From a virus, in the UHGV virus genome UHGV-0375936: a DNA stretch of 64,000 nt. The stretch is one strand, 5' to 3'. A program made the translations under genes and the position numbers. The notes under the pieces are model-generated. The model saw only the letters and a program-made list of their open reading frames with translations. It did not search any database and had not been told where the DNA came from. This document shows positions 30,861-48,353 of the stretch, in pieces. Numbering within the stretch: position 1 is the first letter of the stretch; every line of letters starts with the position of its first letter.

Positions 30861-30873
30861 GGAGAATTTTTTG

Positions 30874-33800: not shown

Positions 33801-35055
33801 TGCCAAAGCGTGTAAGCTGGGGATTGGTTCTCGTTCAGATTCTGCGGTTACGGATATCCCGTTAGTGATGGAGGAATCTGGGGAAACGGCGGTGGCGGCA
33901 ACGTTTAAGGATGTGTTGTTCAACGGCGAGGAAACCAACGCAGCGATACTCGACTTGATAGGCTGGGGTCCAAATAAAGACAAAATCTCTGCAAACCACG
34001 CGCCACGAGGTATGATTCGTTATCGTTACAACGTAAACACTCGGGTATTACGTTTAGCACTATCGTTCTCACAGTTCGGAACGACAACAGTTAAGCACCG
34101 CCAGTTGGAAATTGAATTTCCGTTTGATTTGGTGGATTACTTCACCGGTGACGGTGTAGGATTGTCGTTTAAAGAACTGTCTGCGAAATGCCGTGTAACG
34201 ATTAGCCACGCACTGATTGATCCGGTTACGACTAAAATCGATATTGATAAGTATCATTACCTACGCTCGTTATTTGAGTCGTATTTGGATGCATCTGTTG
34301 GTTATTTGGCTGATACCAAAGACGCCGACTTTAACCAGTCTGTGATTGACCCTGCGACTTATGAGATTAATCAGAAATACCGCGTTACCGAAAGCATTGC
34401 GCTGCCGACCGGTCAGGGAAGTGTTGCTGTTTCCCATGACGGTCAGTTACCTGCACAGTTCTTTGACCGTAAGCTGTCTCGCGGTGCTTTGATGGCCAAG
34501 AAAGGTGAACTTCATACTTCCTGGAACAATGAGTGGAGTACATCCAAAGCTGCCGCAAACCGGTATCGACATAAACTCATTCTGCGCTTTGCACAAGGTG
34601 CTGATAAACAACAGTACCGTGTTGCAAAAGTGACAGGAACGGTGAAGTGTAACTGGCCGGGCAAGGTGATTATCGGTGATGCTGGGAAGGACGCGTATGT
34701 ATCAGCTATCGATAGCGTGCCGTTTGCGCTTTCGACCAGCGCGGACACAGGTAAAGCAGTTACCCTTACGCCAAAGGATCTACGTGTAGGGCAGGACATT
34801 TATATTGTCTTAGAACCACCAGGCAATAATCCAGAAGGCTACGAGCTTAACTTTACCTGTTCGTTAGATGTCACTGACGAGAAAGGTGTCCGTCAAGACC
34901 AGCTCAATGCGCAGAGTTTCGAACTCCGTAGCGGCGAAAGTCAGTTCTTAATGGAGAAACGCAATCCGTACCACATCACGAGTAAAGCGTGGAAGTGGAT
35001 TCTGGCTGTACTGAAACGAGAACTTAACGGGAAGCAGTTAGGGGATCGTACTTAG
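30874..35055 (+). CDS. tail-fibre-like protein (paralog 2 of 4)
   Basis: 1394 aa from ATG after AAGGAGAA; shared N-terminal domain; repeat ATTAEKGVAKLKTGKGTETTGVAATPASL. Confidence 0.65.
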   Translation: MKAYPYDPRGTKAENHFLEERIIGSENNNDRVVILDHRPFFEDLVVRQPGSTTPLSRGVDYELQYQLTELDDSVAANVYCGVHLINPSIKGIVTFEGQMLGGTFYDPFVDILDELVKYLNNPVSADWLLLDGRPSLYPATPAATSWADLLNKKYLASAVHDIELKTDDANQLIKDKLAEVKALVTALGKEIEAFNYPAHIAETNPHKTTSAQINAHPVNLKTPDTFMAYGLKLKALTDELKAFRLPQSVIDTYISHWISSEVRGVFNCTVSGNRAQFRSKNGESEIIFANDGFTLKSNGSVVLAVGHLEGTGAGRYINWRAGKNTLRIESTGDALGMNKLTLNGNPLLTTTALMEYQQDPDAGSGGGGDPDDSKVYIEGRNGISFTGKGSRADPIVGTIDPTKATTAEKGVAKLKTGKGTETTGVAATPASLAPYSTDLSGYVAKTTMINGKPMNDGSRTITKADLGLGQANNTADVDKPLSTELNAALSGLADAGHHHDWSELGIYKASQSVYGIGRYATNQNGLVENRAVVPNILKELSARLDVVAAAIANAKEGSVTDFAAVKGAEWRFNSQGTAISVQDLKYFYLLNGTKADSTVTGSIDLQTTPMFNWFSPNNQIETTWPTGKVSAGKGINWTGIEEPPLMGFQSVPVGKTASQMGDQSVVTVLAKTRVRAHQSKLWVYAAGGGPVTVYINGIQAATGQSPLVAVHETSADVENYTVAVKAECSDTAKSAAVQFEIYDGDYPVYFSGPETRVELLQEFVTTHVGIRHYLYVNMLTSSLYSRTEPIQSVAVDPERGYIGYVDIVAGESYANKSVSFETTFDFGKSAEVSEHIDTRKAHGLSSVDWTLTDNPRFPLLNRAIAEPRTCIFRKTLTAGTGDVFHLVSRGLYTYAHNQNVKSSLQYVVIPEGATPYCWFTPFNPKENNAPTFEGSFVFDVDDVGGTQALTAAPDLVLCTSTQGSSVKRRYVRIDLTAKACKLGIGSRSDSAVTDIPLVMEESGETAVAATFKDVLFNGEETNAAILDLIGWGPNKDKISANHAPRGMIRYRYNVNTRVLRLALSFSQFGTTTVKHRQLEIEFPFDLVDYFTGDGVGLSFKELSAKCRVTISHALIDPVTTKIDIDKYHYLRSLFESYLDASVGYLADTKDADFNQSVIDPATYEINQKYRVTESIALPTGQGSVAVSHDGQLPAQFFDRKLSRGALMAKKGELHTSWNNEWSTSKAAANRYRHKLILRFAQGADKQQYRVAKVTGTVKCNWPGKVIIGDAGKDAYVSAIDSVPFALSTSADTGKAVTLTPKDLRVGQDIYIVLEPPGNNPEGYELNFTCSLDVTDEKGVRQDQLNAQSFELRSGESQFLMEKRNPYHITSKAWKWILAVLKRELNGKQLGDRT

Positions 35056-35093
35056 GACAGACTGCCTGCGGGCAGTTGTGTGTCCGTAGGTAA

Positions 35094-35130
35094 CCCCTCC
35101 CTGTAATGGGGAGGGGTATCCATTTTATTT
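35094..35130 (+). terminator. intergenic hairpin / possible attenuator
   Basis: CCCCTCCC-TGTAAT-GGGAGGGG hairpin with T-rich tail between fibre genes 2 and 3. Confidence 0.45.
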
Positions 35131-35149: not shown

Positions 35150-38100
35150 ATGCCGAGAGAAGACGCGGCGCAGTTTAACGGTACGCTAAGCACAACGACG
35201 TACCCTAACCGATTTAACGTGGTCATTCCGCCTGAAGGACCTTTTTATCGTATCGGATTAAAACTCACAGTAGCCGACGATACCGCGCCTAACGGACGTC
35301 GTACTCTGATTGAGGGGTTGGACTACTATTTAGGCTATTACTTTAAAGAACTCGCAGAAGCTGAACAAGATCAGATTTATGGCGGGTTTATGTTGCTTAC
35401 TGCAACAGAAATCGAATATGAGATTTTAGGGGTAGCACGTCAATACCGTGTACCGCAATCTGAAATCGGGAAGTTCTTAGTTCGTACTGACCTGAAAGAC
35501 CCACGTAACGTGGACTGGTCAGAGTTAATGGCGTATGCGCCAGTTATTCAACCTATCGATCCCCCTGCTAACTTAGAAGAAGCTATCCTGAGGGATGAGG
35601 TTGTTAAAGCGTTAAACGATATCCGTAAGAAAATCATTCAACGTTCAACAGAGTTAGATGCAGCGTTTACCGAAGTCACTAACCTGATTTACGAGAACGG
35701 TAAAAAGATTTTCGATGAAGAACTATACCAACACCACCTTAATCCTAACGCTCACCAGTATACGACCACTGATGTTGGTGCTCTTCCGGTTTTGGGACGT
35801 GCTGTTGACGCGACAAAAGCGTTTGGACTGACGATTGACCAGCTGGCTACGCTGATGGGTTCGGCGGGTATTGAGCAATCAGACGTTGATCAGTTAATAG
35901 GTGAAGCCCTCGGCACTGTTTACGGTCGTTGGGGCAGCACGAACGGTAACGAACTGACGTTTAAAACCGCAGGCGGACACATCATCAGTATCCGTGGTGA
36001 TAAGTGGTTAATTACCTCACCGCAACCGTTGGTGATTAAAGCAGACCAGGACAACAACGAATCGGGTTTGGCGGTTGAATTTAGTGCGGGGCTGAATACG
36101 CTTTGGGTACACTCTGGGACAGAACAAGATGTATTAGCGCCGGTTTACAACTCTGTGTATTTGGTTACACCAGAAATGGTGAACATGTACCTTACGTCTG
36201 TAACGTTACTTGAAGCAAATGCCTATTTCAAACCATCAGACACCGTAAAACCATACGGTACAGCGAAGCAGTCTAATCCGCTAACGTTGAACGCGAATAT
36301 CCCCACAGCAACCGAGTCGGTTTATGGGGTGTTTTCGATTACGAATATCGCAACCTCCGTAGCACTAGGCACTGCTATTTCCCAAAAGGCGGTGACCGAA
36401 TTAAAAGACCGGTTAGACTTGTACGTTGACGATGACTACACGGTTAACGGTAAAGGGTTTGTTAAGACAGGCGATAAAATGGTGTTAACCTTAACGAAAA
36501 CCGATTTCGGTATCGATAAGATGGATAACACCACGCCGATCGCTAAACCGGTAACAAAAGCGTTAGCGAATGTGCTGAAAAATAAAAGTTTGAAGGTGCA
36601 TACGCACACTACCGCCGATTTGGATAATGTCCCGATTGGTAGTGCGACCGTGGATGGTATCTTACAGCTGTGGGATGCGATTGATACCACGAATGATAAA
36701 GCCGTCACATCACGCCAAGGGTGGTTGTTCGCAAAAGAGATTAAGAAGGTCTCTGATAAACTGAATACCCTCTTGCCCGCATGGACAACGTCCGGGAGCA
36801 AATACACCAATAATTCGATATTGCCGATCTTGTCGATGGGTAATTACGAAGGTTATGGTAAAAACATGGATGCGCTCCAGATGGTTATAGGGGTACAACA
36901 AGGTAAGCTTTATGCTTTAATTAGTTCTAAATCTGCCCTTCCGGGAACTGAGGGTATTTATTACGCTGTTGCTGGGTTAAAAAACGACAAAAGTCTCGGT
37001 GAAATTTACAAAACAACTTTCCGTTATAAGCCGAAAGGGTTAGAGACGAATTATCCGGGGGTGGAACTAAAAGAAATTACCGTTACTGGCACCGAAGCAT
37101 TTATAGCGAAGGGCAGCGACGATAATTATTATTTAGTTAAACTGAACGGTTCAATGGATTACACCAAACATACCGATGTCAGGTTGGTAACTTTCTCAGA
37201 ATTTGTTTCAGAAACAACATGGGAATTTGTGCCGAATATGTTCATGGATCGTGTGGTCATAGCCGATAACGGCGTCTATGTTTTGCGTACGATGCTAATG
37301 GCCGATCTGAAAAACAATAGTCTGGTGGACTACATTAAGGATACTCCGCAACCTATGTTCCGTGTTGGGTTATTGCGACTTAATAAAACCGATCGGTTTG
37401 AACAGGTTGATTTAAGCTCTACACGAAAAATCGGTAAGTGTGCCGATTTGGTTGAACCTGGCGCGTTCGATGTAGATAATCCGAATACGAAGCGTCTTGC
37501 CTACTTCACTGCGGAAGGCAAAGCGTTGTGGACAGTGAATTTACAATTAACTAGAGGGGTGTCAAGATGGATAACGCCCGTTGTTAAGGACGGTCACTTG
37601 TTAACCGTCGGCGTGTCTGGCGTTTGTCTTGGTTTTTCTTCAACGAAAGGTACCACATTCGGGCCATGGAATGGTGCTTATCGTCTCGACCTATTAACCG
37701 GGGAGGTTGGGTTAGAGACAACTAACATCTTCCCAATCAAAATCGATACTACAGGTTGCTACTTAAAAGACGGAACAAAAATAGAGCTGAAATGGAAATG
37801 GGCTACTCGAAGTTCTGGCTATATGGCCGACAATAGAATCTGTGTCGGTGATATGGTTTATTCTTGCTGCTGTTCGACAGAAAAACAACTTGCACCGTCT
37901 CTCCATTACCAGAAACTCCCAGAAGGAGTTAGTTATCTGGACTATGTTAAGTTGAGTGCGGGGTATGAGGGGCAATCTACGTTTGAAAATCGGATAAACC
38001 CTGTGGTGGGTTCGGTGTGGAAACCGTCTATGACCTTCCCATTGTTCTTCCCAGGAACAAACAAAGTATGGCTTAAACATCAAAAAACGGCTTATTTCAT

Positions 38101-40336
38101 TGAAGCCGAATATGATAAAGATACGACTTATGGTTATCCTGGATACGGCGGGTTTGGACCAACATCCCGCCGTGTTGAAAAAAAAGCGAACGAATACGGC
38201 GTATTGACAAATATACCGCTGGTTGTTACGCCAGACATACCGAAAGGTCTACTAGATGGGGCTTACTTTATCGGTGCTGAAAGTAAACCATGTAAAGTTG
38301 TTTACGGTACCACTACGGTGGCTAGTGATCGGTTGTCTATCGATGCGGCAGAATGGGCGAAGTTGACTAATATTGTTCAGTCCAGCCAGTTCTCTGGGGC
38401 TTCTAACGGCAACGCCTATGAGCGGATTAGCGTAGCTAAGACCAAAAAGAACAACTACAGTTTGTCCTTTTGGGTGCTTGGTCAAACGATGTCTGGTGGT
38501 CCGCTTTGTATCGCGATAGTGAGTCTTATCTATAAAGACACTGACGGGGTAAATAAGTTTGCTTTTTACTTCTTTCAGGTAAAACCGACTATAACCAACG
38601 GGGTCATAAGGTTCGTTAGTTCGGAAGCGAGAATGATGACGTTCAGGGAAAAAGTGGCCAGTAACGCCATTAATCTCTCACCCACAGCTTTTAATGGTGA
38701 ACTTAAACAACGCTCCGGTCAAGTTTTCCTTTATTCGCAAGACGGACAAAAGTTCAGATTCTCAATACATAACCTGGTTGGCGGGAATCTTGTAGGATCA
38801 GAGATTTCTTTTGCTTTTGGGATAAACTTGACTAAAAAAGGAGAATGGTTTACCGGCGAAATTCATCGGGCGTGGGGCTATACGTATACGCTGAATAATA
38901 CATCTGAAGTCTATATACCCGATCTCTCGGGCATCGCGCTATTGACTTGTAACTCGGAAGATTTAAACGAGTTGTATCTCGGTGGCGAACAGTATAGAAT
39001 CTCTGATTTGTTTAACAAAAAATATACTGTTATCGATAAGATTATTATTGGCGGCGTACAAACACAGAGCGGTTGGAATTTCTATCTGACGGAGGAAACC
39101 GAGTTAAGTTTTGGAAATAAAAGATATACCGTTCCAAGATGGTCCGTTGATTTAAGCGATGAATTCCCGACTAATCACGCTAACCAGACATTCTACGTTT
39201 ATGCTGAAGTGGTCGGTTCTACTGCCCAATACCGCATCGGTTTAGAGCAGTTAGCTGATACCTCGTCGAGACTGTTTGTTGGGACAGTAACCACTGATTC
39301 GAACCGTATTACGGATATCAGTATCGATAAAGTAAAACGGTTAGGTCGTGTAAAAGAGCTGGAAAATCATGCCTCGGTTGTTGATCAGCACGATGTGGCG
39401 CAGGCGTTCGACAGGAAAACTGGTCCACTATTAACAGTGGTTAATAAACCCGTTAAAGCCATTACAGCATCTGCGAGCAAGGGTGCTGGGTATGTCGATG
39501 GCCAGAAATGGAATACGTTGTCCGGGATTGCAACGCGGCCCAGGTTGCCGGTACAGGAAACCTATTCAGGTTATAAAAGTATCAGCAGGGTGGCGTATGA
39601 GAACTGCGCTGACCAGTTCTGGCAGAAAGCGGTTGCTGCGAACGTTGCAGCGGCTACTGCTTCTGAGAACAAACAAGCAGCAACCGCGAACATGAAGTGG
39701 TTGGGTGCGTATACGAAACCGACTACCGGCGAGTATGCATATCTGGCATTGAGTCTGCGTGTTAAAGTACCTGGCGATCCTGGTACTACTAATCGTCGAC
39801 TGAAAATCAGGCTTGCGGCCCCGACAGGTATAACTCAAGTTCGTTACGGGCTAAATCAGTCTGGCGGTACGATGACTGAACAGACAGTAACGCTAACTGC
39901 TAACAGTTACCTGGAAAAAGAACACGCGGGATTTAAGCCAGCCGCCGAAGTCCGCCTTCATGCTACGTTTGTCATTCCAAAAAATGAATACGATAGCTAC
40001 CGGACCAAATTTGGTGCTGTTCAGCTGATTGACGTTGAGACGAACACTGTCATTAAACAGACAGATATCGACACACCGTTTATCGTGTACACCGCCACAG
40101 AGCAAGCGGCACAATCTGGTTTGGTGTATAAAGCGGTTAAGAGTCAGTTTCGTCAACTCCCGGCTCAACCTGTCGTCATTGTAACTGATGGACAGACAGG
40201 GACTACACCACCGGTGAAAACCGCATATTCTGACGGCACGTTAACGGTCTACGTGGCAACCACGTACGATGCGGTTAACCCAGCACAAACTCGCGATATC
40301 GATAAGCTCCAGTTCAATCTTATGTTTACATCTTAA
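35150..40336 (+). CDS. tail-fibre-like protein (paralog 3 of 4)
   Basis: 1728 aa; AGGAG RBS; shared N-terminal domain (PPEGPFYRIGL...GLDYYLGYY). Confidence 0.65.
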   Translation: MPREDAAQFNGTLSTTTYPNRFNVVIPPEGPFYRIGLKLTVADDTAPNGRRTLIEGLDYYLGYYFKELAEAEQDQIYGGFMLLTATEIEYEILGVARQYRVPQSEIGKFLVRTDLKDPRNVDWSELMAYAPVIQPIDPPANLEEAILRDEVVKALNDIRKKIIQRSTELDAAFTEVTNLIYENGKKIFDEELYQHHLNPNAHQYTTTDVGALPVLGRAVDATKAFGLTIDQLATLMGSAGIEQSDVDQLIGEALGTVYGRWGSTNGNELTFKTAGGHIISIRGDKWLITSPQPLVIKADQDNNESGLAVEFSAGLNTLWVHSGTEQDVLAPVYNSVYLVTPEMVNMYLTSVTLLEANAYFKPSDTVKPYGTAKQSNPLTLNANIPTATESVYGVFSITNIATSVALGTAISQKAVTELKDRLDLYVDDDYTVNGKGFVKTGDKMVLTLTKTDFGIDKMDNTTPIAKPVTKALANVLKNKSLKVHTHTTADLDNVPIGSATVDGILQLWDAIDTTNDKAVTSRQGWLFAKEIKKVSDKLNTLLPAWTTSGSKYTNNSILPILSMGNYEGYGKNMDALQMVIGVQQGKLYALISSKSALPGTEGIYYAVAGLKNDKSLGEIYKTTFRYKPKGLETNYPGVELKEITVTGTEAFIAKGSDDNYYLVKLNGSMDYTKHTDVRLVTFSEFVSETTWEFVPNMFMDRVVIADNGVYVLRTMLMADLKNNSLVDYIKDTPQPMFRVGLLRLNKTDRFEQVDLSSTRKIGKCADLVEPGAFDVDNPNTKRLAYFTAEGKALWTVNLQLTRGVSRWITPVVKDGHLLTVGVSGVCLGFSSTKGTTFGPWNGAYRLDLLTGEVGLETTNIFPIKIDTTGCYLKDGTKIELKWKWATRSSGYMADNRICVGDMVYSCCCSTEKQLAPSLHYQKLPEGVSYLDYVKLSAGYEGQSTFENRINPVVGSVWKPSMTFPLFFPGTNKVWLKHQKTAYFIEAEYDKDTTYGYPGYGGFGPTSRRVEKKANEYGVLTNIPLVVTPDIPKGLLDGAYFIGAESKPCKVVYGTTTVASDRLSIDAAEWAKLTNIVQSSQFSGASNGNAYERISVAKTKKNNYSLSFWVLGQTMSGGPLCIAIVSLIYKDTDGVNKFAFYFFQVKPTITNGVIRFVSSEARMMTFREKVASNAINLSPTAFNGELKQRSGQVFLYSQDGQKFRFSIHNLVGGNLVGSEISFAFGINLTKKGEWFTGEIHRAWGYTYTLNNTSEVYIPDLSGIALLTCNSEDLNELYLGGEQYRISDLFNKKYTVIDKIIIGGVQTQSGWNFYLTEETELSFGNKRYTVPRWSVDLSDEFPTNHANQTFYVYAEVVGSTAQYRIGLEQLADTSSRLFVGTVTTDSNRITDISIDKVKRLGRVKELENHASVVDQHDVAQAFDRKTGPLLTVVNKPVKAITASASKGAGYVDGQKWNTLSGIATRPRLPVQETYSGYKSISRVAYENCADQFWQKAVAANVAAATASENKQAATANMKWLGAYTKPTTGEYAYLALSLRVKVPGDPGTTNRRLKIRLAAPTGITQVRYGLNQSGGTMTEQTVTLTANSYLEKEHAGFKPAAEVRLHATFVIPKNEYDSYRTKFGAVQLIDVETNTVIKQTDIDTPFIVYTATEQAAQSGLVYKAVKSQFRQLPAQPVVIVTDGQTGTTPPVKTAYSDGTLTVYVATTYDAVNPAQTRDIDKLQFNLMFTS

Positions 40337-40376: not shown

Positions 40377-41576
40377 ATGGCCTCCATTGTATACCAATAC
40401 CCTTTAGATTTAACGGGAACCCTAACCTCTAACGCCGTGGAGCGTCAGGTTACGTTAGGTACAGGTAAAGTTAACCGTGCGTTTGCTTTTCCTGACGGTC
40501 CGTTTTATGCTGATACGTTCCGCTTGCGGGTTGCTAACCGCCCAGATGCGACGTATGAGCGCGGAACGGACTATGAGTTGATTTTTGCACACCCGGCTTA
40601 CGAGAAATTGACGAAGAACCGGGAAGTGGTAATGGCGGTTGTTGTAACGAACACCGCGATTCCGACCGATATCACGGTATCGGCGCAAGTAGTCGGGGGC
40701 CCGCAGTCGGCAAACGTGACTGCGATAGAACAGGCGATTGCTGAGTTGAATCTCGATAATCGAACTGTTGGCTTTAAAGACTTGCGAAATGTTCCTGATA
40801 CATTTCCTTCGGCACCAACGTATAAAGACGTCGGCGATATTTACGGCTTCGAATACATCATTACAGTGCTCGCCGGTATTAAAGATGCGATAACTGCTGG
40901 CGATGCTGTACAGCTTGAGAACATCAAAGCGATTCTCGAAAGCCTGAAAAACGATTTCCTGGACGCGCTGAACGCGCACATTAACGCCACGGGTAACGTC
41001 CACCATCTGGATATTCACCAGGTTAACGGGTTAACAGAAACGGAGATCCGTGCACTGATCCGTGACGTACAGTCTGCCATCGATGCAACCATTACTGATA
41101 TTAATGCGTTGAAGAAAGCAGACGAAGCGTTAGGAAAACGTATTGATGCTGTTGTCAAATCTCTGGAAGCGTGGAACGACCAACTTAACGTCGTTGCACA
41201 AAACTACCAGAAAATGGCACTGGCAATGGCGAACCTAAACTCGTTAGTGTTACAGTTACAGAAAAATATCAACGATCTGAGCACCAAACTCAACCAAGCG
41301 ATTCAACGTATTGCTGCGTTAGAACAGCGGGGTAATGAGTCCGATCAGAAAATTGATAAACTGCAACAAAACCTGGATGCGCTTAAACAGCAGGTTAATA
41401 ATAACACGAACGCAATCAGTCAGGCGAATCAGAACCTACAAAACCATATTGCGGCAGACAACCCACACACAGGCTATCTCCACAAGAAATACGGTGGTGT
41501 GGTTCAGGCTCCAGTGCACGTTAACGCTAACTTGACGTCCCGTGATGACGTTCAGGCAGAAGCGGGTACGAAATAA
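40377..41576 (+). CDS. tail-fibre-like protein with coiled coil (paralog 4 of 4)
   Basis: ATG after AAGGAG; N-terminus FPDGPFYADTFRL...GTDYELIF shares the fibre N-domain; long heptad-like C-terminal region. Confidence 0.6.
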   Translation: MASIVYQYPLDLTGTLTSNAVERQVTLGTGKVNRAFAFPDGPFYADTFRLRVANRPDATYERGTDYELIFAHPAYEKLTKNREVVMAVVVTNTAIPTDITVSAQVVGGPQSANVTAIEQAIAELNLDNRTVGFKDLRNVPDTFPSAPTYKDVGDIYGFEYIITVLAGIKDAITAGDAVQLENIKAILESLKNDFLDALNAHINATGNVHHLDIHQVNGLTETEIRALIRDVQSAIDATITDINALKKADEALGKRIDAVVKSLEAWNDQLNVVAQNYQKMALAMANLNSLVLQLQKNINDLSTKLNQAIQRIAALEQRGNESDQKIDKLQQNLDALKQQVNNNTNAISQANQNLQNHIAADNPHTGYLHKKYGGVVQAPVHVNANLTSRDDVQAEAGTK

Positions 41577-41643
41577 CTTTATTACAGGAGGAACTATGCT
41601 TATGGGCGTAGTCCTCCATTCTTTTTTATTTTAAGGATACGTG

Positions 41644-42039
41644 ATGGCGATCAGTGTTAAAAATGTACGTGACCGAATCACCAACGTAGAGAACCAAATG
41701 GCAACTGGCCCACGTGTTGATCCGCAAGTTGCGTCGAAAGCACATAATGCCGCCGACACTTTTTCGGGTTGGACGCCAAGTCGGTTAGACTGCGGGGGAA
41801 GTTGCAGCTGGACGTGCTCAAACGGCTGTACGCACGGCTGTACGAGTTGTTCGGGCACCTGTACGTCAGTATGTGTAGGTAGCTGCTCCTCTGCGTGCGG
41901 TAACCAGTGTACTGGATGTAGTTCAACATGTTCCGGCGGCTGTTCAGGTTGCAGTGGGACCTGTGGTGGTGCTTGCTCGGGCCGTTGTTCTACGGGTTGT
42001 TCTGGTGCTTGCTCTGGTGGCTGTTCTGGCCCAACCTAA
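41644..42039 (+). CDS. Cys-rich peptide A, candidate RiPP precursor
   Basis: AAGGA RBS; about 50-aa leader then about 80-aa core with about 21 Cys, mostly C-x3-C (CGGSCSWTCSNGCTHGC...); track ORF starts 3 nt earlier at GTG. Confidence 0.6.
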   Translation: MAISVKNVRDRITNVENQMATGPRVDPQVASKAHNAADTFSGWTPSRLDCGGSCSWTCSNGCTHGCTSCSGTCTSVCVGSCSSACGNQCTGCSSTCSGGCSGCSGTCGGACSGRCSTGCSGACSGGCSGPT

Positions 42040-42049
42040 GAGGTGAAAA

Positions 42050-42448
42050 ATGGCAATTGGATTACCTGCGCTACAAGCGCGGCTAAATAACATTGACAAC
42101 ACTGCATTGAAGAATACGGGTGCAGTGCAAAACTATATTCGTGGGAAAGCGACGAACAACGCAGACTTATTCGGTGGACAAGCTCGCAACCATTACGACT
42201 GTGGTGGGAGCTGTAGCTGGACCTGTTCGAGCTGTTCTGGTGGTTGTACAGGGAACGCATCAGGCGGCTGTGGTTCTTCGTGTTCTGCAAACTGTGTATC
42301 AGGTTGCAGCGCAGGCTGTAGCGGATGTTCGAATACATGTTCTGGTGGCTGCTCAGGAAGCTGTACGGGGAGTTGTTCTAACTCGTGTGTGGGAAACTGT
42401 TCTTCAGGCTGCTCGGGCAGTTGTTCTGGTGGGTGTTCTGGGAGGTAA
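42050..42448 (+). CDS. Cys-rich peptide B, candidate RiPP precursor
   Basis: GAGGTG RBS, 10 nt after peptide A stop; core DCGGSCSWTCSSCSGGC... with about 20 Cys. Confidence 0.6.
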   Translation: MAIGLPALQARLNNIDNTALKNTGAVQNYIRGKATNNADLFGGQARNHYDCGGSCSWTCSSCSGGCTGNASGGCGSSCSANCVSGCSAGCSGCSNTCSGGCSGSCTGSCSNSCVGNCSSGCSGSCSGGCSGR

Positions 42449-42450
42449 TT

Positions 42451-42657
42451 GTGATTAGCCTTAAGAACCTTCGTGATCGATTAGTAACAGCGGAAGGGTA
42501 TATTACGACCGCTAACGCAAACAACTATATTGCAAACCAGGGCACCGTGTCTTCAACCAATAACCTTGCCGGTTTACCTTTAAGCCATTATAACTGTAAC
42601 GGCGGATGTAGCTGGTCGTGTAGCGGTAGCTGTAGTAAAGGCGCGGGGGGAAGGTAA
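42451..42657 (+). CDS. short Cys-rich peptide C, candidate RiPP precursor
   Basis: GTG start 5 nt after GGAGG, 2 nt after peptide B stop; leader VISLKNLRDRL resembles peptide A; core NCNGGCSWSCSGSCSKG. Confidence 0.5.
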   Translation: MISLKNLRDRLVTAEGYITTANANNYIANQGTVSSTNNLAGLPLSHYNCNGGCSWSCSGSCSKGAGGR

Positions 42658-42806
42658 CTAAGCCCTCCAGTGGTAGTATGTCTATTACGCAATAACCGAG
42701 TTAATCGTACGGGTTTACTACTGAGTTTCAAGTTACCGGTAGGCAATGGTGCGGTGGTTTCTATACCCTGAATGTCCGTTTGACCGTGAAATAATTGGAG
42801 CAATCA

Positions 42807-43694
42807 ATGAAGAATGATTTACATTTAGCATACAAAACAATTTTCAATCATCCACTTCACATTTCTTCCCCTGATTCCGTACGTGCACACTTAGCAGATG
42901 AAGTTCGTCTGCTGACTCAGTTGCCGGGCGAATGGCCTAAAGTACGCGGACGTTTCTTTACCGATCGTAAAAACTATCGTGTAGAAAATACGTTTAAGAT
43001 TCGTGATCTGACGGCAGAAAGTGTGGTGGTCTTTACCGGTGACTCCGAGTTGCGTGGTAAACTGGTTGCGGGTAAATATTTCTTTAGTGACGGGATTTTG
43101 AATAACTCCGTAGATATGGAATTGTTCTTTACCCCATTTGAAGAAATGGGCGCAAAACCGGTTGCCCGTCGTTGGTGGTCACCGGATTACTTAGGCTCGT
43201 TCCCGTATTTCTTTACCCTGGTAACACCAGAAACGAAGAACTATTTCGATACGGAATCGTATATCGAAATTGAAGGGTACGAAGCGTTAGGGATTAATTG
43301 CTTAGCGGATTTAATGGCGTATAGCTATAAGTTCGTGTGGGATCGTGAACGTTCCGTGTGGGTTGCCCTGACGGATGAACATGAAATCACAAAACGCATC
43401 CGTAAGCCTTGGATGCAGCATTTGATTCAAACGCGTATTGGCGAGCATCCGTCAACAGAAGCGGATCTGGCAAAACTCCTTAGTTTCTTAATGACGAAAG
43501 TCACGTTAACTGACGAAGAGAAAGCAGCAGTGTCGGCGGTGTTGGACCGTAACGTAACGTTAGCGGATTTAGAACGTTTAAATGTCCGTTATAAAGACCT
43601 TAACCGTATTTTGGAAGCGTATAACTCTCCATTCTTGTTAACCCCTGGTGCTAACGTAGACGACGATCCTTTGTTCGCCATTGATTATATTTAA
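42807..43694 (+). CDS. hypothetical protein, candidate RiPP accessory
   Basis: ATG at 42807 with GGAG RBS; 296 aa between precursors and radical SAM genes; no motif recognised. Confidence 0.55.
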   Translation: MKNDLHLAYKTIFNHPLHISSPDSVRAHLADEVRLLTQLPGEWPKVRGRFFTDRKNYRVENTFKIRDLTAESVVVFTGDSELRGKLVAGKYFFSDGILNNSVDMELFFTPFEEMGAKPVARRWWSPDYLGSFPYFFTLVTPETKNYFDTESYIEIEGYEALGINCLADLMAYSYKFVWDRERSVWVALTDEHEITKRIRKPWMQHLIQTRIGEHPSTEADLAKLLSFLMTKVTLTDEEKAAVSAVLDRNVTLADLERLNVRYKDLNRILEAYNSPFLLTPGANVDDDPLFAIDYI

Positions 43695-43715
43695 AAACGA
43701 CCGGAGTCACCTGCA

Positions 43716-44639
43716 ATGACAACCAATGCAGAACCAAGGTTATCGAATCGTTTATACGATAAACCCACCGTATTGTCCGTAGTCGCTACGTCCAAGTGTA
43801 ACCTGGATTGTAGCTTCTGCGGTGGAGCCTATTACATGAATCGTGAAGATTCTCCGCGAGAGTTTCAACGTGAGCGAATTTTGGAAGCGCTGGAAGCTAA
43901 TCCAACCATTACCGAAATTCAGTGGACGGGTGGTGAGCCATTACTGGCAACCCGTAAAATTGAGGCGTTTGTTGACGAATTAAAAGTGATTCGTCCAGAA
44001 CTCAAACACCAGTTGTATACCAATGGCTTAAAGATGCGTAAATCGCATCTCCCGTTGCTAAAACAGTTTGACAATGTCTACGTTAGCATCGATGGGTTTA
44101 AGTCGTCTGAGCGCCCGTTTATGCGCTTTATTGACGAAGGCTGTTACGAAGCACTGGAAACGATCTACGAGCTGGATAATGTCCAGACTTGGGGTGTCCT
44201 GACACGGGACCGTTTAGGGGACAAACGCTGGCACGAAGATATTATTCAGCTGCACAGCGCGATTTACCATTACGGTTTCCGTGCAATGACGTTACTCTTA
44301 GATGCGAAAATGCCAAAACCTTTATCGCCTGACCACGTCATGAACTTTATTTACGGCTACTATCAGGTTCAGGATAACATTGAACGACTGAATGTAGTAA
44401 ATAGTCGTGAATGCGGCTTTACAGTAAGTAAAGTGTTTGAAGAAGGGTGTAACGTTTGCAGCGAAAGTCTTTGGATTAATGCAGACGGCGGTGAGCACCA
44501 ACTCCAGAATGCACCTAACGTTCTGGAATCGGGATGTAACCAACTGGCCTTCTCTATCGGTGTAGAGGCGTACGAATATATTCGTCGCGTAGTGATGGCA
44601 GGGCGTAATAGAGGGGCGGCAAATGAGTCAAGTAAATGA
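43716..44639 (+). CDS. radical SAM enzyme
   Basis: CNLDCSFC (CxxxCxxC) near N-terminus, GGEPLL SAM-binding motif, four more Cys in the C-terminal third. Confidence 0.8.
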   Translation: MTTNAEPRLSNRLYDKPTVLSVVATSKCNLDCSFCGGAYYMNREDSPREFQRERILEALEANPTITEIQWTGGEPLLATRKIEAFVDELKVIRPELKHQLYTNGLKMRKSHLPLLKQFDNVYVSIDGFKSSERPFMRFIDEGCYEALETIYELDNVQTWGVLTRDRLGDKRWHEDIIQLHSAIYHYGFRAMTLLLDAKMPKPLSPDHVMNFIYGYYQVQDNIERLNVVNSRECGFTVSKVFEEGCNVCSESLWINADGGEHQLQNAPNVLESGCNQLAFSIGVEAYEYIRRVVMAGRNRGAANESSK

Positions 44640-45945
44640 ATTCCCTAAGCAGTTAACGTATCAGATCGTAACCAACCTTTCGTGTAACCTGGACTGCGAA
44701 TATTGTTACGAACGTAAGTACCCGCGTAACAACAAAGCGGCGGATATTGTTGATTTCTTACACGCCTGTTTTGAACGTGATAAAAACGAACCGAATGTTG
44801 AAGTTATTATCGACATTATCGGTGGTGAGCCGTTCATGCAGCCTAAACTGCTGCTGGCTGCGTTTGAAACCGCTGAGCAGTTGTGTAAAGAACACAACCG
44901 ACCGTTTATGTTTAGTATTTCCACGAACGGAACGCTGTTAGATCGTCCGTTGAACCGTGAGATCGTAGAACGTTGGAAAGATAAACTTTCGGTTGGGGTT
45001 TCGATTGACGGCTTACCTGAGTCCCATGACCGTTATCGTATCTTCACAACAACACGCCAGGGTTCTTACGAAGCCGCAGTACGTGGCTATAACTACTTAA
45101 AAGAGGTTGGCATTGCAGAGCTCGGCGTAAAAGCAACCTTTACGTTAGAAACGCTGCCGTTCTATGCTGCGGGGATGAAGTCATTAATTGACATTACTGG
45201 CGGTGGGACAATTTCTGGAAACGTAACTTTCGAAGACGTTATGCCGCGTAGCATGGCGACATCAATCGCTTTACAGATGATGGATGTGATCGATTATTGG
45301 GTTGAGAAAGGATTACACACCAACCCACGTAATATCTTATCGCACATCATTCCAGAAGGGTTGGATTTCGATACGATTTGGGAACCGAACTGGCGTGACC
45401 AGTTACTGTATAATGACACCGTACGGTTGAACCCAGAACGTTTACGTCCGTTCTGTGGGACGTTAACGCACATGACGTGCTTAGGATTTGACCGTAAGAT
45501 CTTTGGCTGTAACCGCTTTATGTCAACGGTAACGTCGCGTTCTGCGGTGTTTGAGTTGGTAGGTCGGGAATTCGTCAGTCTGGACAACGGTAAGCTGCTA
45601 GAAGAGATTCAAACGCAATATACCAACTACCCAGAGACCTGTTTAGGTTGTCCGATGAAACACGCTTGTGGTAGCTGTGCTGCGGCTTCTTACGAGAACG
45701 GGGAAGGAACGTTAGAAGACCGTAAGGCGTATCACGCTGAACGACGTCAGTGCGGCTGGACGACAGCGAAACTGATGGTGGCGGAATACTGGAAACAGAA
45801 GATGGGTACGACGTCAGCAAAAGCGTTCCATGACACGAGCATGTGTTATTGCCCACGCTGTGTTCGTGAACGTGCCCAAAAGGAAAAATTATTAAGAGAA
45901 GCCAAAGATGAAACCAATTCTGATCAACAATATTACGAAGCGTAG
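44623..45945 (+). CDS. radical SAM enzyme with SPASM-like domain
   Basis: CNLDCEYC, IGGEPF, STNGTLL, and C-terminal CLGCPMKHACGSCAA Cys cluster; 17-nt overlap with upstream radical SAM gene. Confidence 0.8.
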   Translation: MSQVNEFPKQLTYQIVTNLSCNLDCEYCYERKYPRNNKAADIVDFLHACFERDKNEPNVEVIIDIIGGEPFMQPKLLLAAFETAEQLCKEHNRPFMFSISTNGTLLDRPLNREIVERWKDKLSVGVSIDGLPESHDRYRIFTTTRQGSYEAAVRGYNYLKEVGIAELGVKATFTLETLPFYAAGMKSLIDITGGGTISGNVTFEDVMPRSMATSIALQMMDVIDYWVEKGLHTNPRNILSHIIPEGLDFDTIWEPNWRDQLLYNDTVRLNPERLRPFCGTLTHMTCLGFDRKIFGCNRFMSTVTSRSAVFELVGREFVSLDNGKLLEEIQTQYTNYPETCLGCPMKHACGSCAAASYENGEGTLEDRKAYHAERRQCGWTTAKLMVAEYWKQKMGTTSAKAFHDTSMCYCPRCVRERAQKEKLLREAKDETNSDQQYYEA

Positions 45946-46480
45946 AATTCGACTTCTGGATAAGTTTCTGGAAAACAGTAAGCTATTCGGTTGTTATGTG
46001 GTGATTAACGGTGAAGATTTTACCGATGACGTAAAACGCTTACTGATTCGTCACGGCGTGACTGTAATCATCCCAATGTACTGCACCGAACTTACTGACC
46101 TGTCGGTCGCGGAAATTGAAAAACGTAACCCAGGGTTTGAAGAACGGGTATTGGATTTCCCACGTCACAAAATTGCGTTTCTACGCCGCTCTTTAAGCGA
46201 ACCCAGCGCAGAATCTATCACTGTGTTGGCATTGTCCTTCCCAGGCATTACTATCTTCGCAACACGTAACCCGAACTCACCGATTGATGGGTTTTACGAT
46301 GAGCGGGAGAAATTTAATAGCGTGATTTTTCCTGAACTAACGCCAGAAGAATGTCAGGGTATCCGTATCGATTGGGAATCGGACTTCGACACAAGATTCC
46401 GTCATATCGATTTTGAACTGTTAATCGAATTAGGGTTGATTAAAGGAGACGATGAATGTCTGCTACTGGTGAAGGCTTAA
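45908..46480 (+). CDS. hypothetical protein
   Basis: 190-aa ORF overlapping the end of the radical SAM gene. Confidence 0.5.
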   Translation: MKPILINNITKRRIRLLDKFLENSKLFGCYVVINGEDFTDDVKRLLIRHGVTVIIPMYCTELTDLSVAEIEKRNPGFEERVLDFPRHKIAFLRRSLSEPSAESITVLALSFPGITIFATRNPNSPIDGFYDEREKFNSVIFPELTPEECQGIRIDWESDFDTRFRHIDFELLIELGLIKGDDECLLLVKA

Positions 46481-47127
46481 CGAAAGAAGAAATCCGTCGC
46501 CGTTATTTTGCGCACGATTTACCGATTGACCGTCATGGTAACTACATGGAGAAAATCGGTAGCGAAGATCACGGCCGTACAGGGTTTTGTGCATTACTGC
46601 ACTATAAGTTGATTGATGGGATGTCTGATCGCGAAGCATTGGAGCAAATGCGTAACTACGACATGTCTGAAATCGAAGCACGGTTTACGCTACAGAAAGC
46701 GAAAGACTTTGTTAACGACACGCTGGGAATTGACCTGGAAGAGATTCGTACGGGGTTACGTTCCACCGTACGGTACATCTTTACCGATGTTCAGAAAATT
46801 CTAAGCGCTTTGGAATTCCGTTATCAGGATGCGCGCTATGCTGAGATTCAGGTAGGTGATTTCACTTTCCAGGCAGATGAGAAGTCACAGGTAGCACTGA
46901 GTCGTTATATCCAGTCAGAAACTGCGCCAGCGTATTGGTTAACGGCTAACAACACCCGTATCGAACCGTTTACGTTAGAACAGTGCAAGACGTTGCTGGC
47001 AGCAATCGTTGAGCGTGATCAAAGACTACACCACGCAATGTCTGAGCAGAAAAGAGAAGTCAGGGCTTGGGCTGAAGCACGTGATTACGATTCGATAAAA
47101 GCGTTTGCGTTAGAGCAAGGGCTGTAA
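46456..47127 (+). CDS. hypothetical protein
   Basis: 223-aa ORF overlapping previous gene; last gene before bidirectional terminator. Confidence 0.5.
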   Translation: MSATGEGLTKEEIRRRYFAHDLPIDRHGNYMEKIGSEDHGRTGFCALLHYKLIDGMSDREALEQMRNYDMSEIEARFTLQKAKDFVNDTLGIDLEEIRTGLRSTVRYIFTDVQKILSALEFRYQDARYAEIQVGDFTFQADEKSQVALSRYIQSETAPAYWLTANNTRIEPFTLEQCKTLLAAIVERDQRLHHAMSEQKREVRAWAEARDYDSIKAFALEQGL

Positions 47128-47134
47128 TCGACAG

Positions 47135-47190
47135 CGAAAAAAACAGTATACCTACCTCCCGTAATAGGAGGTAGGTATTTTTATTTTTTC
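47135..47190. terminator. bidirectional Rho-independent terminator
   Basis: 12-bp perfect stem ATACCTACCTCC-CGTAATA-GGAGGTAGGTAT flanked by A-run and T-run. Confidence 0.7.
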
Positions 47191-47721
47191 TTAGGACGTA
47201 AAACCGTCCAGCTCACCGTTGGTGGTGGCCAGGTCAATACGATTATCAACAACCTTCGGCGTAATTACGAAAGTTGCCATTACACCTGGCTTATAACGGA
47301 GGTTCTTTTCAGTAACGGTACACGTTACCGTACGCAGAGTGACGCTATCGTGTTCGTCTTTCTGGTCTTCGGTGGTGTACTCAGCGTCACCAGGTGCGAT
47401 AGAGTCGTCAGGTTTTACTTTATTGATGTAAAACTGTAATCGGTCGCGTAGTTCGTTTTCTCCAGTCCAGAGAGCCAAATCGTCCGTTACCTCAATGCGT
47501 CCGACAACGCCAGGTTCCAGACGATCGTAATGCAGTTCGATTGCGCCTTTAAAATTTTCAGACTCTGTACGTGCGGTCATGGTAACTTTGGTATTTTTAT
47601 CGCCCTTTTCAAGAGCGACAGGTTGACCAAAAGTTACCTCTTTATCAGTGACCTGATGCGGTAGCTCTGTGTTAGCAGCATTATAAAGCGCAACTAACAT
47701 CATCTGGTTAGTAGCTGCCAT
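47191..47721 (-). CDS. putative virion protein, paralog family B
   Basis: Shares NTKVTMTARTESENFKG...HYDRL and NGELDGFT with 47787..48353. Confidence 0.5.
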   Translation of the reverse strand: MAATNQMMLVALYNAANTELPHQVTDKEVTFGQPVALEKGDKNTKVTMTARTESENFKGAIELHYDRLEPGVVGRIEVTDDLALWTGENELRDRLQFYINKVKPDDSIAPGDAEYTTEDQKDEHDSVTLRTVTCTVTEKNLRYKPGVMATFVITPKVVDNRIDLATTNGELDGFTS

Positions 47722-47786: not shown

Positions 47787-48353
47787 TTACTCTTTAGGCG
47801 CTGGTGCGGTGAAGCCATCCAGTTCACCTTCCAAACCGCTCAGTGCTACTTTCTCAAGAGCTGGAGGGGTAACTTTATACGTCGCAACAGTACCTGGCAG
47901 GAACTTCAAGTGGCCAGCCACAACCGTTACCACGTAAATGGTTTTGCCTTCTTCTTCACGAGAGATAGTTTGCAGGTCGTTTTCACCGAACTCGTCATCG
48001 GTGTACCCTTTCTCAGCCATGGCTGCGTTAACTTTCGCCAGGATTTTCGTCGGTGAATCGAAATCGGTAGTAGGTGCAGTTACTTCAACTTCACCAACGA
48101 TGTCGCAGGAAAGACGAGTATAGTGGAATTCTTTCTCGCCTTTGAAGTTCTGGCTTTCTGCCTTGGCGGTCAGAGTAATTTTAGTGTTGCGGCCAGCTTC
48201 TCCGGTGAACTCAGCGACAGCACTAAAATTAACATCATTTACAGTCAGCTTAGAAGCAGTTTGGTTGTTTTTAGCAATTACAATCTCGATAAGCTGCTGT
48301 TGAAAAGTTTTAGCCATTGTTTTTACCTCGTAAGTAGTATGGGTGGTTTGCAT
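47787..48353 (-). CDS. putative virion protein, paralog family B
   Basis: Paralog of 47191..47721. Confidence 0.5.
   Translation of the reverse strand: MQTTHTTYEVKTMAKTFQQQLIEIVIAKNNQTASKLTVNDVNFSAVAEFTGEAGRNTKITLTAKAESQNFKGEKEFHYTRLSCDIVGEVEVTAPTTDFDSPTKILAKVNAAMAEKGYTDDEFGENDLQTISREEEGKTIYVVTVVAGHLKFLPGTVATYKVTPPALEKVALSGLEGELDGFTAPAPKE

Follow-up and report, generated by a model that had tools for sequence, protein, structure and literature searches.

Repeats of tens of residues in which every fourth one is a Cys characterise the substrates of the CXXX-repeat radical S-adenosylmethionine (rSAM) system (TIGR04114/PF27846 substrates and TIGR04115 enzymes), in which several substrate paralogs per locus accompany an adjacent rSAM/SPASM enzyme. 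This family has been catalogued from bacterial genomes, and our literature searches found no biochemical characterisation of it. PapB, CteB (SCIFF) and QhpD are also SPASM-type rSAM enzymes that act on Cys-rich substrates; QhpD cross-links QhpC, the small gamma subunit of quinohemoprotein amine dehydrogenase, and thus provides a case of rSAM thioethers in a structural protein subunit. Modular phage tail fibres, such as T4 gp37 (with gp38/gp57A), T7 gp17 and the collagen-like fibres, are encoded in fibre blocks next to non-virion assembly genes, combine N-terminal attachment and coiled-coil parts with a distal C-terminal module, and interchange collagen-like repeats among paralogs, all features that recur in the system described here. 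Their tips are known to be stabilised by metal ions, chaperones or auto-cleaving domains. We know of no described tail fibre that needs rSAM enzymes or contains a Cys-every-fourth repeat, and literature searches (CXXX repeat, TIGR04115, SPASM, tail-fibre thioether, SPN3US radical SAM) returned no description of rSAM-dependent tail fibres. In this work, we analysed a stretch of 64,000 nucleotides of the virus genome UHGV-0375936 (hereafter, the window), in which four tail-fibre genes are followed by a cassette encoding three Cys-rich proteins (peptides A, B and C), two rSAM enzymes and three further proteins. In our view, the cassette probably serves the tail fibres as an accessory module, rather than forming an antimicrobial peptide cluster of its own. 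The most suitable reading of A, B and C is that of small proteins of the fibre tip, probably stapled by thioethers, rather than that of bacteriocins.

Results

Cys-repeat proteins of the cassette

The window shares ~72% nucleotide identity with the SPN3US-like jumbo phages (Seoulvirus and relatives), and its gene order is colinear with SPN3US gp170 to gp161. At the protein level, its long rSAM gene is 100% identical (tblastn) to that of the IMG/VR contig UViG_3300029126_000001. Fibres 1-4, peptides A, B and C and five further genes, the last of which ends at position 47127, are arranged in this order on the + strand (Table 1). The preliminary description of this DNA had placed a Cys-rich cassette downstream of the fibre genes on the same strand, a layout that the open reading frames (ORFs) confirm. 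The order fibres, fibre 4, A, B, C, p299, short rSAM, rSAM/SPASM, p190 and DUF4376 protein is kept in SPN3US, CR5, Phobos and 15 or more IMG/VR jumbo contigs.

Peptide A has a helix at its N-terminus and the junction motif DCGGSCSWTCS, and ~80 aa are taken up by CXXX (occasionally CXX) repeats. It contains 21 Cys, a count found in every ortholog, with 3,3,3,3,2,3,3,3,3,3,2,3,3,2,3,3,3,3,3,3 residues between successive Cys, and the regular expression (C-x3)x5 matches A, B and all the orthologs. Peptide B is a paralog of A (45% identity) with 20 Cys, while peptide C consists of an N-terminal region like that of A and B plus CNGGCSWSCSGSCS, with no long repeat. The three peptide genes are real: their products match phrog_6085, the triad is kept in SPN3US, CR5, Phobos and more than 15 IMG/VR contigs, and nonsynonymous change (pN) is far below synonymous change (pS), at 0.055 vs 0.84 for A and 0.064 vs 0.72 for C. 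Homologs of peptide B carry the Pfam domain PF27846 (tSAM_targ_Cxxx_rpt). Against the TIGR04114 CXXX-repeat model, B itself reaches 19.4 bits, just short of the cutoff of 20, and A and C give no match. When the PDB was searched with a profile of this family, the only matches were insignificant ones to coiled coils of trimeric adhesin constructs (E >= 0.08).

In the published annotation of SPN3US (L001 16950-17979; NC_027402/JN641803 ~143191-144220), A and C are unannotated and gp166 (ACQ60_gp100) is an out-of-frame ORF inside peptide B. The correct ORFs lie on the complement of JN641803 at roughly 144220-143828 (A), 143817-143413 (B) and 143397-143191 (C), corresponding to L001 16950-17342, 17353-17757 and 17773-17979. 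In CR5 (L010 9145-9950; CR5_157) and Phobos (L011 9151-9948; gp167, gp168), ORFs of the opposite strand are annotated where A and B lie, and the 69-aa peptide C is the only member of the triad annotated.

Homologous modules at the fibre loci of unrelated phages

Searching IMG/VR with a long-rSAM profile yielded 73 loci. The full-length relatives of the enzyme (L012-L049, down to 24% identity) have a CXXX-repeat ORF on the same strand within ~3 kb, the exceptions being four short or truncated stretches (L038, L043, L046 and L048). None of the 35 loci that match only the partial or generic rSAM core (L050-L084, L081 apart) contains such an ORF; L081 belongs with the close relatives despite its number and has both A and B.

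In several independent phage lineages, the module is located at the fibre locus. In T7-like contigs (L003 and L007), the tube, the nozzle and a protein with the T7 gp17 N-terminal domain precede a small collagen-like protein, after which come the CXXX protein, a p299-like protein and the rSAM enzymes. The collagen-like neighbour has the same N-terminal domain as the CXXX protein, with GXY repeats instead of CXXX, and this swap on a shared domain suggests a fibrous, possibly trimeric, role for the repeat. In lambda-like contigs (L031), the J-type central fibre (phrog_31, E 1e-167) immediately precedes the CXXX protein, and a p299 homolog (E 8e-17 to p299 of the window) and an rSAM enzyme come next. 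In a 213-kb contig (L029), a CXXX fibre follows a baseplate wedge protein, and in L030 a protein matching phrog_1807 and phrog_105 (tail fibre assembly) lies directly upstream of the CXXX fibre. This L030 protein shares its PHROG 1807 match with the DUF4376 protein of the window, for which the match is weak.

In several loci (L029, L031, L033 and L034), the CXXX module is the extreme C-terminus of fibres of 255-568 aa. Among these fusions are a 568-aa protein with LDLKAPL-type fibre repeats and proteins of 255 and 401 aa; the 568-aa fibre of L029 matches phrog_6085 at residues 443-531. A search of 1.8 billion representatives with a CXXX profile retrieved 777 relatives, 123 of them at E <= 1e-10. 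They include a T7 gp17-type fibre (P0103) and a long collagen-like fibre (P0150) that end in the CXXX module, collagen repeats being present also in L034, and two further long fibres with the module (P0098 and P0134). The junction motif C..GCSW[ST]C occurs in about 45 of the best 150 of the 777 relatives, in proteins of 119-559 aa, and in all of these carriers the Cys run stops 12 residues or fewer from the C-terminus. The same junction is found in the cassette, where the N-terminal part of A, B and C holds N.D/A..L.GQ....Y.C..GCSWTC, the motif that joins the shaft to the Cys-repeat tip in long fibres. Since this part is homologous to a shaft-to-tip junction, and no protease or exporter match was found in the cassette, a framing of the products as a leader plus a core peptide is doubtful. 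An SPN3US-like contig (L085 3402-4064) encodes a peptide C ortholog with an extra C-terminal domain of ~150 aa, A and B being normal, a modular swap of the kind typical of fibre proteins.

The occurrence of the module at fibre C-termini and at the fibre loci of unrelated phages is what leads us to read the peptides as fibre-tip proteins. The link to fibres thus rests on comparative evidence, namely co-occurrence, fibre-locus placement and fusions, which is strong though indirect. The preliminary description had proposed fibre- or adsorption-linked, modified Cys-rich proteins, and this proposal gains support from the homologous modules with rSAM/SPASM enzymes and from the C-terminal fusions. 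The argument offered for it at the time, gene placement together with a weak hairpin, is not what carries it.

Other arrangements of the repeat were also observed. A second phage architecture (L036-L049; e.g., L039 7773-9877, L044 4315-6709 and L047 7866-10279) has an rSAM enzyme nearer to the bacterial TIGR04115 type (38-42% identity to the enzyme of the bacterial locus L008), followed by a protein of 230-360 aa with N-terminal CXXX repeats and a conserved C-terminal domain of ~110 aa. In L044 and L045, this protein is encoded beside tail-fibre or collagen-like tail genes. The bacterial locus itself (L008 6556-13784) comprises five CXXX-repeat peptides with RR.FFK signals of the twin-arginine translocation (Tat) type, an rSAM enzyme, a 330-aa Cys-motif protein, TatA and TatC. 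The Tat signals and the dedicated TatA/TatC suggest that the repeat domain is folded or cross-linked before export. Six relatives (P0073, P0074, P0075, P0079, P0080 and P0084) are giant proteins of 1,580-1,800 aa in which the C-terminal ~600 residues are an uninterrupted CXXX-type repeat with about 150-170 Cys.

Table 1. Positions of the fibre genes, the Cys-repeat cassette and the associated hairpins in the window
Feature	Position	Strand	Size and evidence
Fibre 1	26538-30860	+	Ortholog of SPN3US gp170, large baseplate/fibre protein
Fibre 2	30871-35055	+	Ortholog of SPN3US gp169, large baseplate/fibre protein
Terminator-like hairpin between fibres 2 and 3	35093-35117	+	Hairpin scan
Fibre 3	35150-40336	+	Ortholog of SPN3US gp168, large baseplate/fibre protein
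Fibre 4	40377-41576	+	399 aa; ortholog of SPN3US gp167; phrog_2163 virion structural protein, E 1e-103
Conserved intergenic element	41579-41632	+	TTATTAC, hairpin with TATG twice, T-run
Peptide A	41644-42039	+	131 aa (ATG matching orthologs); phrog_6085, E 1.6e-40
Peptide B	42050-42448	+	132 aa; phrog_6085, E 1.4e-39
Peptide C	42451-42657	+	68 aa, GTG start; phrog_6085, E 2.3e-24
Partner protein p299	42807-43694	+	295 aa; ortholog of SPN3US gp165; conserved third cassette component
Short rSAM enzyme	43716-44639	+	307 aa; ortholog of SPN3US gp164; PF04055, E 6e-14; CX3CX2C
rSAM/SPASM maturase (long rSAM)	44623-45945	+	440 aa; ortholog of SPN3US gp163; TIGR04115/PapB matches, SPASM cysteines
p190	45908-46480	+	190 aa; ortholog of SPN3US gp162; phrog_7988; homolog at same position in L005 cassette
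DUF4376 protein	46456-47127	+	223 aa; ortholog of SPN3US gp161; PF14301, E 5e-11
Terminator-like hairpin, bidirectional, closing the cassette	47148-47178	.	Hairpin scan

Radical SAM enzymes and partner proteins

The long rSAM enzyme has its CX3CX2C motif at residues 21-28, and its SPASM cysteines (C278, C286, C296, C340, C343, C349, C352 and C377) are invariant in the family alignment. Its top NCBIfam match is PapB (116.8 bits, far below the cutoff). It aligns end to end with TIGR04115 (residues 10-371 against 3-345 of 359) at 114.7 bits, the cutoff being 350, and it also matches the QhpD-type model TIGR03906 (E 6e-17). The nearest solved structure is that of the thioether-forming CteB (5WGG, E 6e-14), and the identity to the bacterial enzyme of L008 is 24%. 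No N-terminal RRE domain was found in the enzyme, whose CX3CX2C already begins at residue 21.

Compared with the CXXX-repeat rSAM system, the cassette shares the spacing of the Cys residues, the adjacent enzyme and the several substrate paralogs, whereas its enzyme and its repeat score below the respective cutoffs. It also differs from the bacterial L008 version in Tat features, as no RRxFFK motif was found in A, B or C and no TatA or TatC in the window. The phage version adds p299, a second rSAM enzyme, p190 and the DUF4376 protein, has the distinct junction motif GCSWTC, and is embedded in or fused to tail fibres. In view of the sub-threshold scores, the missing Tat features and the extra partners, we place the cassette outside TIGR04114/TIGR04115, in a divergent phage branch.

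The cassette has in common with sactipeptide and ranthipeptide clusters a SPASM rSAM enzyme with the full set of cysteines for auxiliary Fe-S clusters; unlike them, it gives no match to an RRE (PqqD-like), protease, exporter or immunity protein. The phage substrate is 4-10 times longer than known ranthipeptide cores, and its proposed setting is a virion. In contrast to the substrates of PapB and QhpD, the repeat contains no Asp/Glu acceptors. By analogy, the stapling of QhpC by QhpD may be considered the nearest functional counterpart of the cassette.

Regarding the partners, p299 was modelled confidently (pLDDT 86) with a family-specific fold. No structural relative of it was found in the PDB or BFVD apart from its orthologs, so it is not recognisable as an RRE or a protease. 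The short rSAM enzyme is present in some, not all, of the related cassettes, and it is fused to the long enzyme in L003. The DUF4376 protein shows weak matches to the tail fiber PHROGs 1807 and 2837 and is a possible fibre-assembly factor. None of the cassette proteins matched a protease, exporter, immunity or defence protein in Pfam, NCBIfam, PHROGs or PADLOC. The only similarity reported by PADLOC is that of the generic rSAM core to viperins, and a role in defence or anti-defence was rejected on this basis. Mass spectrometry of SPN3US virions detected gp167-173 and nothing from gp161-166 (PMC5694885); the absence of gp161-165 is expected of enzymes and chaperones.

Tail-fibre genes upstream of the cassette

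Fibres 1-3 are mutual BLAST matches and hence paralogs. The similarity of fibre 4 to them is limited to its N-terminal ~110 aa (E 5e-7 against fibre 2), so that the four paralogs of the preliminary description are three complete ones and a fourth that shares the N-terminal attachment domain only. Based on mass spectrometry, SPN3US gp167-170 are tail-associated virion proteins (PMC5694885). Among them, gp168-170 form "paralog family C", are missing from a tailless mutant and resemble phiKZ gp131 (PMC5694885; PMC5105663), and gp167 was detected in virions with no head flag (PMC5694885).

In fibre 4, the N-terminal fibre domain is accompanied by a long coiled coil and a short NPH..YLHK..GG C-terminus, and a receptor-binding end is not obvious. 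The length of its family is nearly constant (395-400 aa across 46-94% identity), unlike that of typical receptor-binding fibres. In distant homologs, NPH..TTK..VGLG tail-fibre repeats replace the coiled coil and are accompanied by an intramolecular-chaperone-like end. Fibre 4 is a candidate stalk for the Cys-repeat proteins, a specific attachment of these proteins to fibre 4 being only a guess.

Beyond the cassette, two small paralogous genes are encoded on the opposite strand (47191-47721 and 47787-48353, both -). SPN3US gp160, the ortholog of the first one, belongs to paralog family B and is a head protein of very high abundance (PMC5694885 Supplementary Table 1), which indicates that the structural block passes from tail to head right after the cassette.

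Conserved element between fibre 4 and peptide A

The intergenic region between fibre 4 and peptide A contains TTATTAC (41579-41585), a hairpin (41587-41617) and a T-run (41619-41632). The preliminary description had reported a hairpin and T-stretch at about 41590-41635, which are indeed present, and had called the hairpin weak, a term that does not fit. Its 13-bp stem, followed by TTCTTTTTTATTTT, has a minimum free energy of -21.6 kcal/mol (z = -3.8), and only 2 of 200 shuffled sequences fold equally well. A stem-loop between the fibre-4 stop and the peptide-A start was found in 13 of the 13 related phages examined, with stems that differ in sequence (GGAGGAAC.., GAGCCGGAC.., GAGGACCTG.., GGGCGAT.. 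and CACGGGCC..); in the CR5-type phages, it has no T-run. This conservation was judged from per-sequence folds and not from covariation in the MAFFT alignment, with 53% paired, no better than in shuffles, since indels break the register.

TATG occurs twice in or near the hairpin loop (41595-41598 and 41601-41604). The TTAC just 5′ of the stem and the TATG of the loop are invariant in the 12 aligned sequences of related phages, and 15-16 nt lie between TTATTAC and TATG. The middle promoters of phiKZ have the consensus AAanTTACc centred at ~-24, and its late promoters have TATG, the G being the start site (PMC4666361). The TTAC...TATG element of the window resembles these middle and late promoter elements, which would place a putative start site in the hairpin loop. 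Judging from its sequence, the element may terminate transcription, start it as a promoter for the RNA polymerase of the phage, or do both. The pattern TTAC-N11-18-TATG has only four intergenic matches in the window, two of which overlap start codons, the motif being too short for statistics in 64 kb. A scan of the window for sigma-70 promoters showed no enrichment, a result that has no bearing here, since the phage is transcribed by RNA polymerases of its own.

Contrary to the earlier suggestion that little separates fibre 4 from the cassette, a strong, positionally conserved hairpin with an invariant TTAC...TATG lies between them. Given this hairpin and its possible promoter, co-transcription of fibre and cassette is not inferable from the sequence in either direction. 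Strong hairpins are found within the fibre block as well, as illustrated by the one between fibres 2 and 3 (Table 1). A 12-codon mini-ORF (41596-41634, encoding MLMGVVLHSFLF and a stop) with a perfect AGGAGG Shine-Dalgarno sequence is located inside the hairpin; it is probably incidental, because it is not kept in SPN3US or phiEaH2.

Discussion

Sequence and homology identify A, B and C as small fibre proteins in which an N-terminal helix leads into the junction motif N..x.GG/GQ....Y.C..GCSW[ST]C, followed in A and B by a C-terminal domain of ~80 residues with a Cys at every fourth position. In the cytoplasm of the infected cell, the SPASM rSAM enzyme would cross-link this domain with the help of p299 and, in this lineage, of the second rSAM enzyme, the links most likely being Cys-to-carbon thioethers. 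The enzymes would be kept out of the virion, as their SPN3US orthologs are. Once stapled, the very compact domain would be incorporated into the fibre apparatus, at its distal tip or in the shaft. Its carrier would probably be fibre 4, which is short and invariant in length, and this link is the weakest step of the proposal. In this position, the domain would provide an end that resists proteases, heat and redox conditions and participates in adsorption.

Several observations weigh against this proposal. Peptides A, B and C have not been directly detected in any virion, the SPN3US annotation being in the wrong frame, and the long rSAM enzyme falls far below the TIGR04115 and PapB cutoffs. An AlphaFold2 model of peptide B, built on a 24-sequence alignment, gives no confident fold for the repeat (pLDDT ~40). 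No fusion of fibre 4 with a CXXX module was found by BLAST of the window proteins against all the profile hits or by a search for fibre-4 homologs. In the lineage of L005 (10001-14677 of a 76 kb contig) and L006 (37 kb), the cassette has the same five-gene core as that of the window (a CXXX protein, a C-like 69-aa protein, a p299 homolog, a short rSAM enzyme, a long rSAM enzyme with 50% identity and a p190 homolog) and does not lie beside recognisable structural genes, its neighbours being an Acb2/Tad1-like gene, a GIY-YIG nuclease and a Cpn60 chaperonin. Finally, the bacterial relatives are small peptides with Tat signals beside TatA/TatC, which are more like secreted products. As for detection in virions, A, B and C are missing or mis-framed in the SPN3US annotation, so published proteomics could not score them and their absence from it is uninformative.

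Those bacterial relatives and the L005/L006 cassette, outside an obvious structural block, would be in agreement with a different interpretation, in which A, B and C are leader-core precursors of a ribosomally synthesised and post-translationally modified peptide (RiPP) or bacteriocin. The precursors would be cross-linked by the rSAM enzymes, their leader would be cut by a host or other protease, and the products would be released at lysis to act on competitors or on the host population. The small size of the products (68-132 aa), the conserved N-terminal part of ~50 aa preceding a Cys-rich part, the presence of multiple precursor paralogs and the relationship of the rSAM/SPASM enzyme to ranthipeptide and sactipeptide maturases are also what such a cluster would show. 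Nevertheless, Pfam and NCBIfam scans of the cassette revealed no protease, exporter or immunity gene, no N-terminal RRE precedes the CX3CX2C motif of the maturase, which begins at residue 21, and a core of ~80 aa with 20 Cys would be far larger than those of known sactipeptides and ranthipeptides. The supposed leader is homologous to the junction of fibres of 250-570 aa that have the same C-terminal module, and this module recurs at the fibre loci of T7-like and lambda-like phages and of the 213-kb contig. We consider a RiPP unlikely, and the bacteriocin-like factor of the preliminary description is likewise disfavoured, as the module caps real fibres and the cassette gives no protease, exporter or immunity match.

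The location of the module, always at the extreme C-terminus, is also that of known intramolecular chaperones. The Cys-repeat domain could thus be a transient chaperone or nucleation module for fibre trimerisation, cleaved or dissociated and not present in the mature virion, and both the chaperone-like end of a distant fibre-4 homolog and the DUF4376/tail-fibre-assembly-like gene that accompanies the cassette are consistent with this function. It would, however, be uneconomical to devote two rSAM enzymes and a partner to a discarded domain; A, B and C are separate genes here, which makes cleavage unnecessary, and the strict conservation of the number of Cys (21 in A) points to a defined end structure. 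This role in assembly only seems to us unlikely as well. An even lower probability is assigned to the repeats being a metallothionein-like store, a cluster donor for the phage rSAM enzymes or a metal-stitched fibre, for which the iron ions in the T4 gp37 tip offer a comparison, with rSAM enzymes that are not peptide cross-linkers. Metal binding would agree with the extremely high proportion of Cys, separated by small side chains, and with the use by the bacterial relatives of the Tat pathway, the typical exporter of folded, cofactor-bearing proteins. On the other hand, the best matches of the long rSAM enzyme are peptide cross-linking maturases, its linkage to CXXX ORFs is strict, and a metal store leaves the fusion to fibre C-termini unexplained. 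A metal-stitched fibre tip would fit the fibre-tip proposal as well.

Returning to the proposed enzymatically cross-linked fibre tip, the annotation of SPN3US, CR5 and Phobos is corrected here for genes that were missing, mis-framed or placed on the wrong strand, which explains the absence of A, B and C from proteomics. Since SPN3US has a genetic system and a well-studied proteome, the hypothesis is directly testable in this phage. A compact, probably hyper-stable fibre-tip module distributed across many phage types bears on host range, phage engineering and particle stability.

We advance tentatively, as a possibility somewhat short of probable, the broader idea that the fibres of unrelated phages (T7-like, lambda-like, myoviruses and jumbo phages) that end in an rSAM/SPASM-stapled, Cys-every-fourth domain represent an unrecognised class of virion maturation. 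If this is true, a catalogued, uncharacterised CXXX-repeat rSAM family would acquire a biological role, and the same fold would have its cellular cousins in the Tat-exported CXXX peptides of bacteria. RiPP-type chemistry would have been recruited for the receptor-contacting tip of a virus, and we know of no earlier example in which a component of a virus particle would be made by the chemistry of radical SAM peptide maturation.

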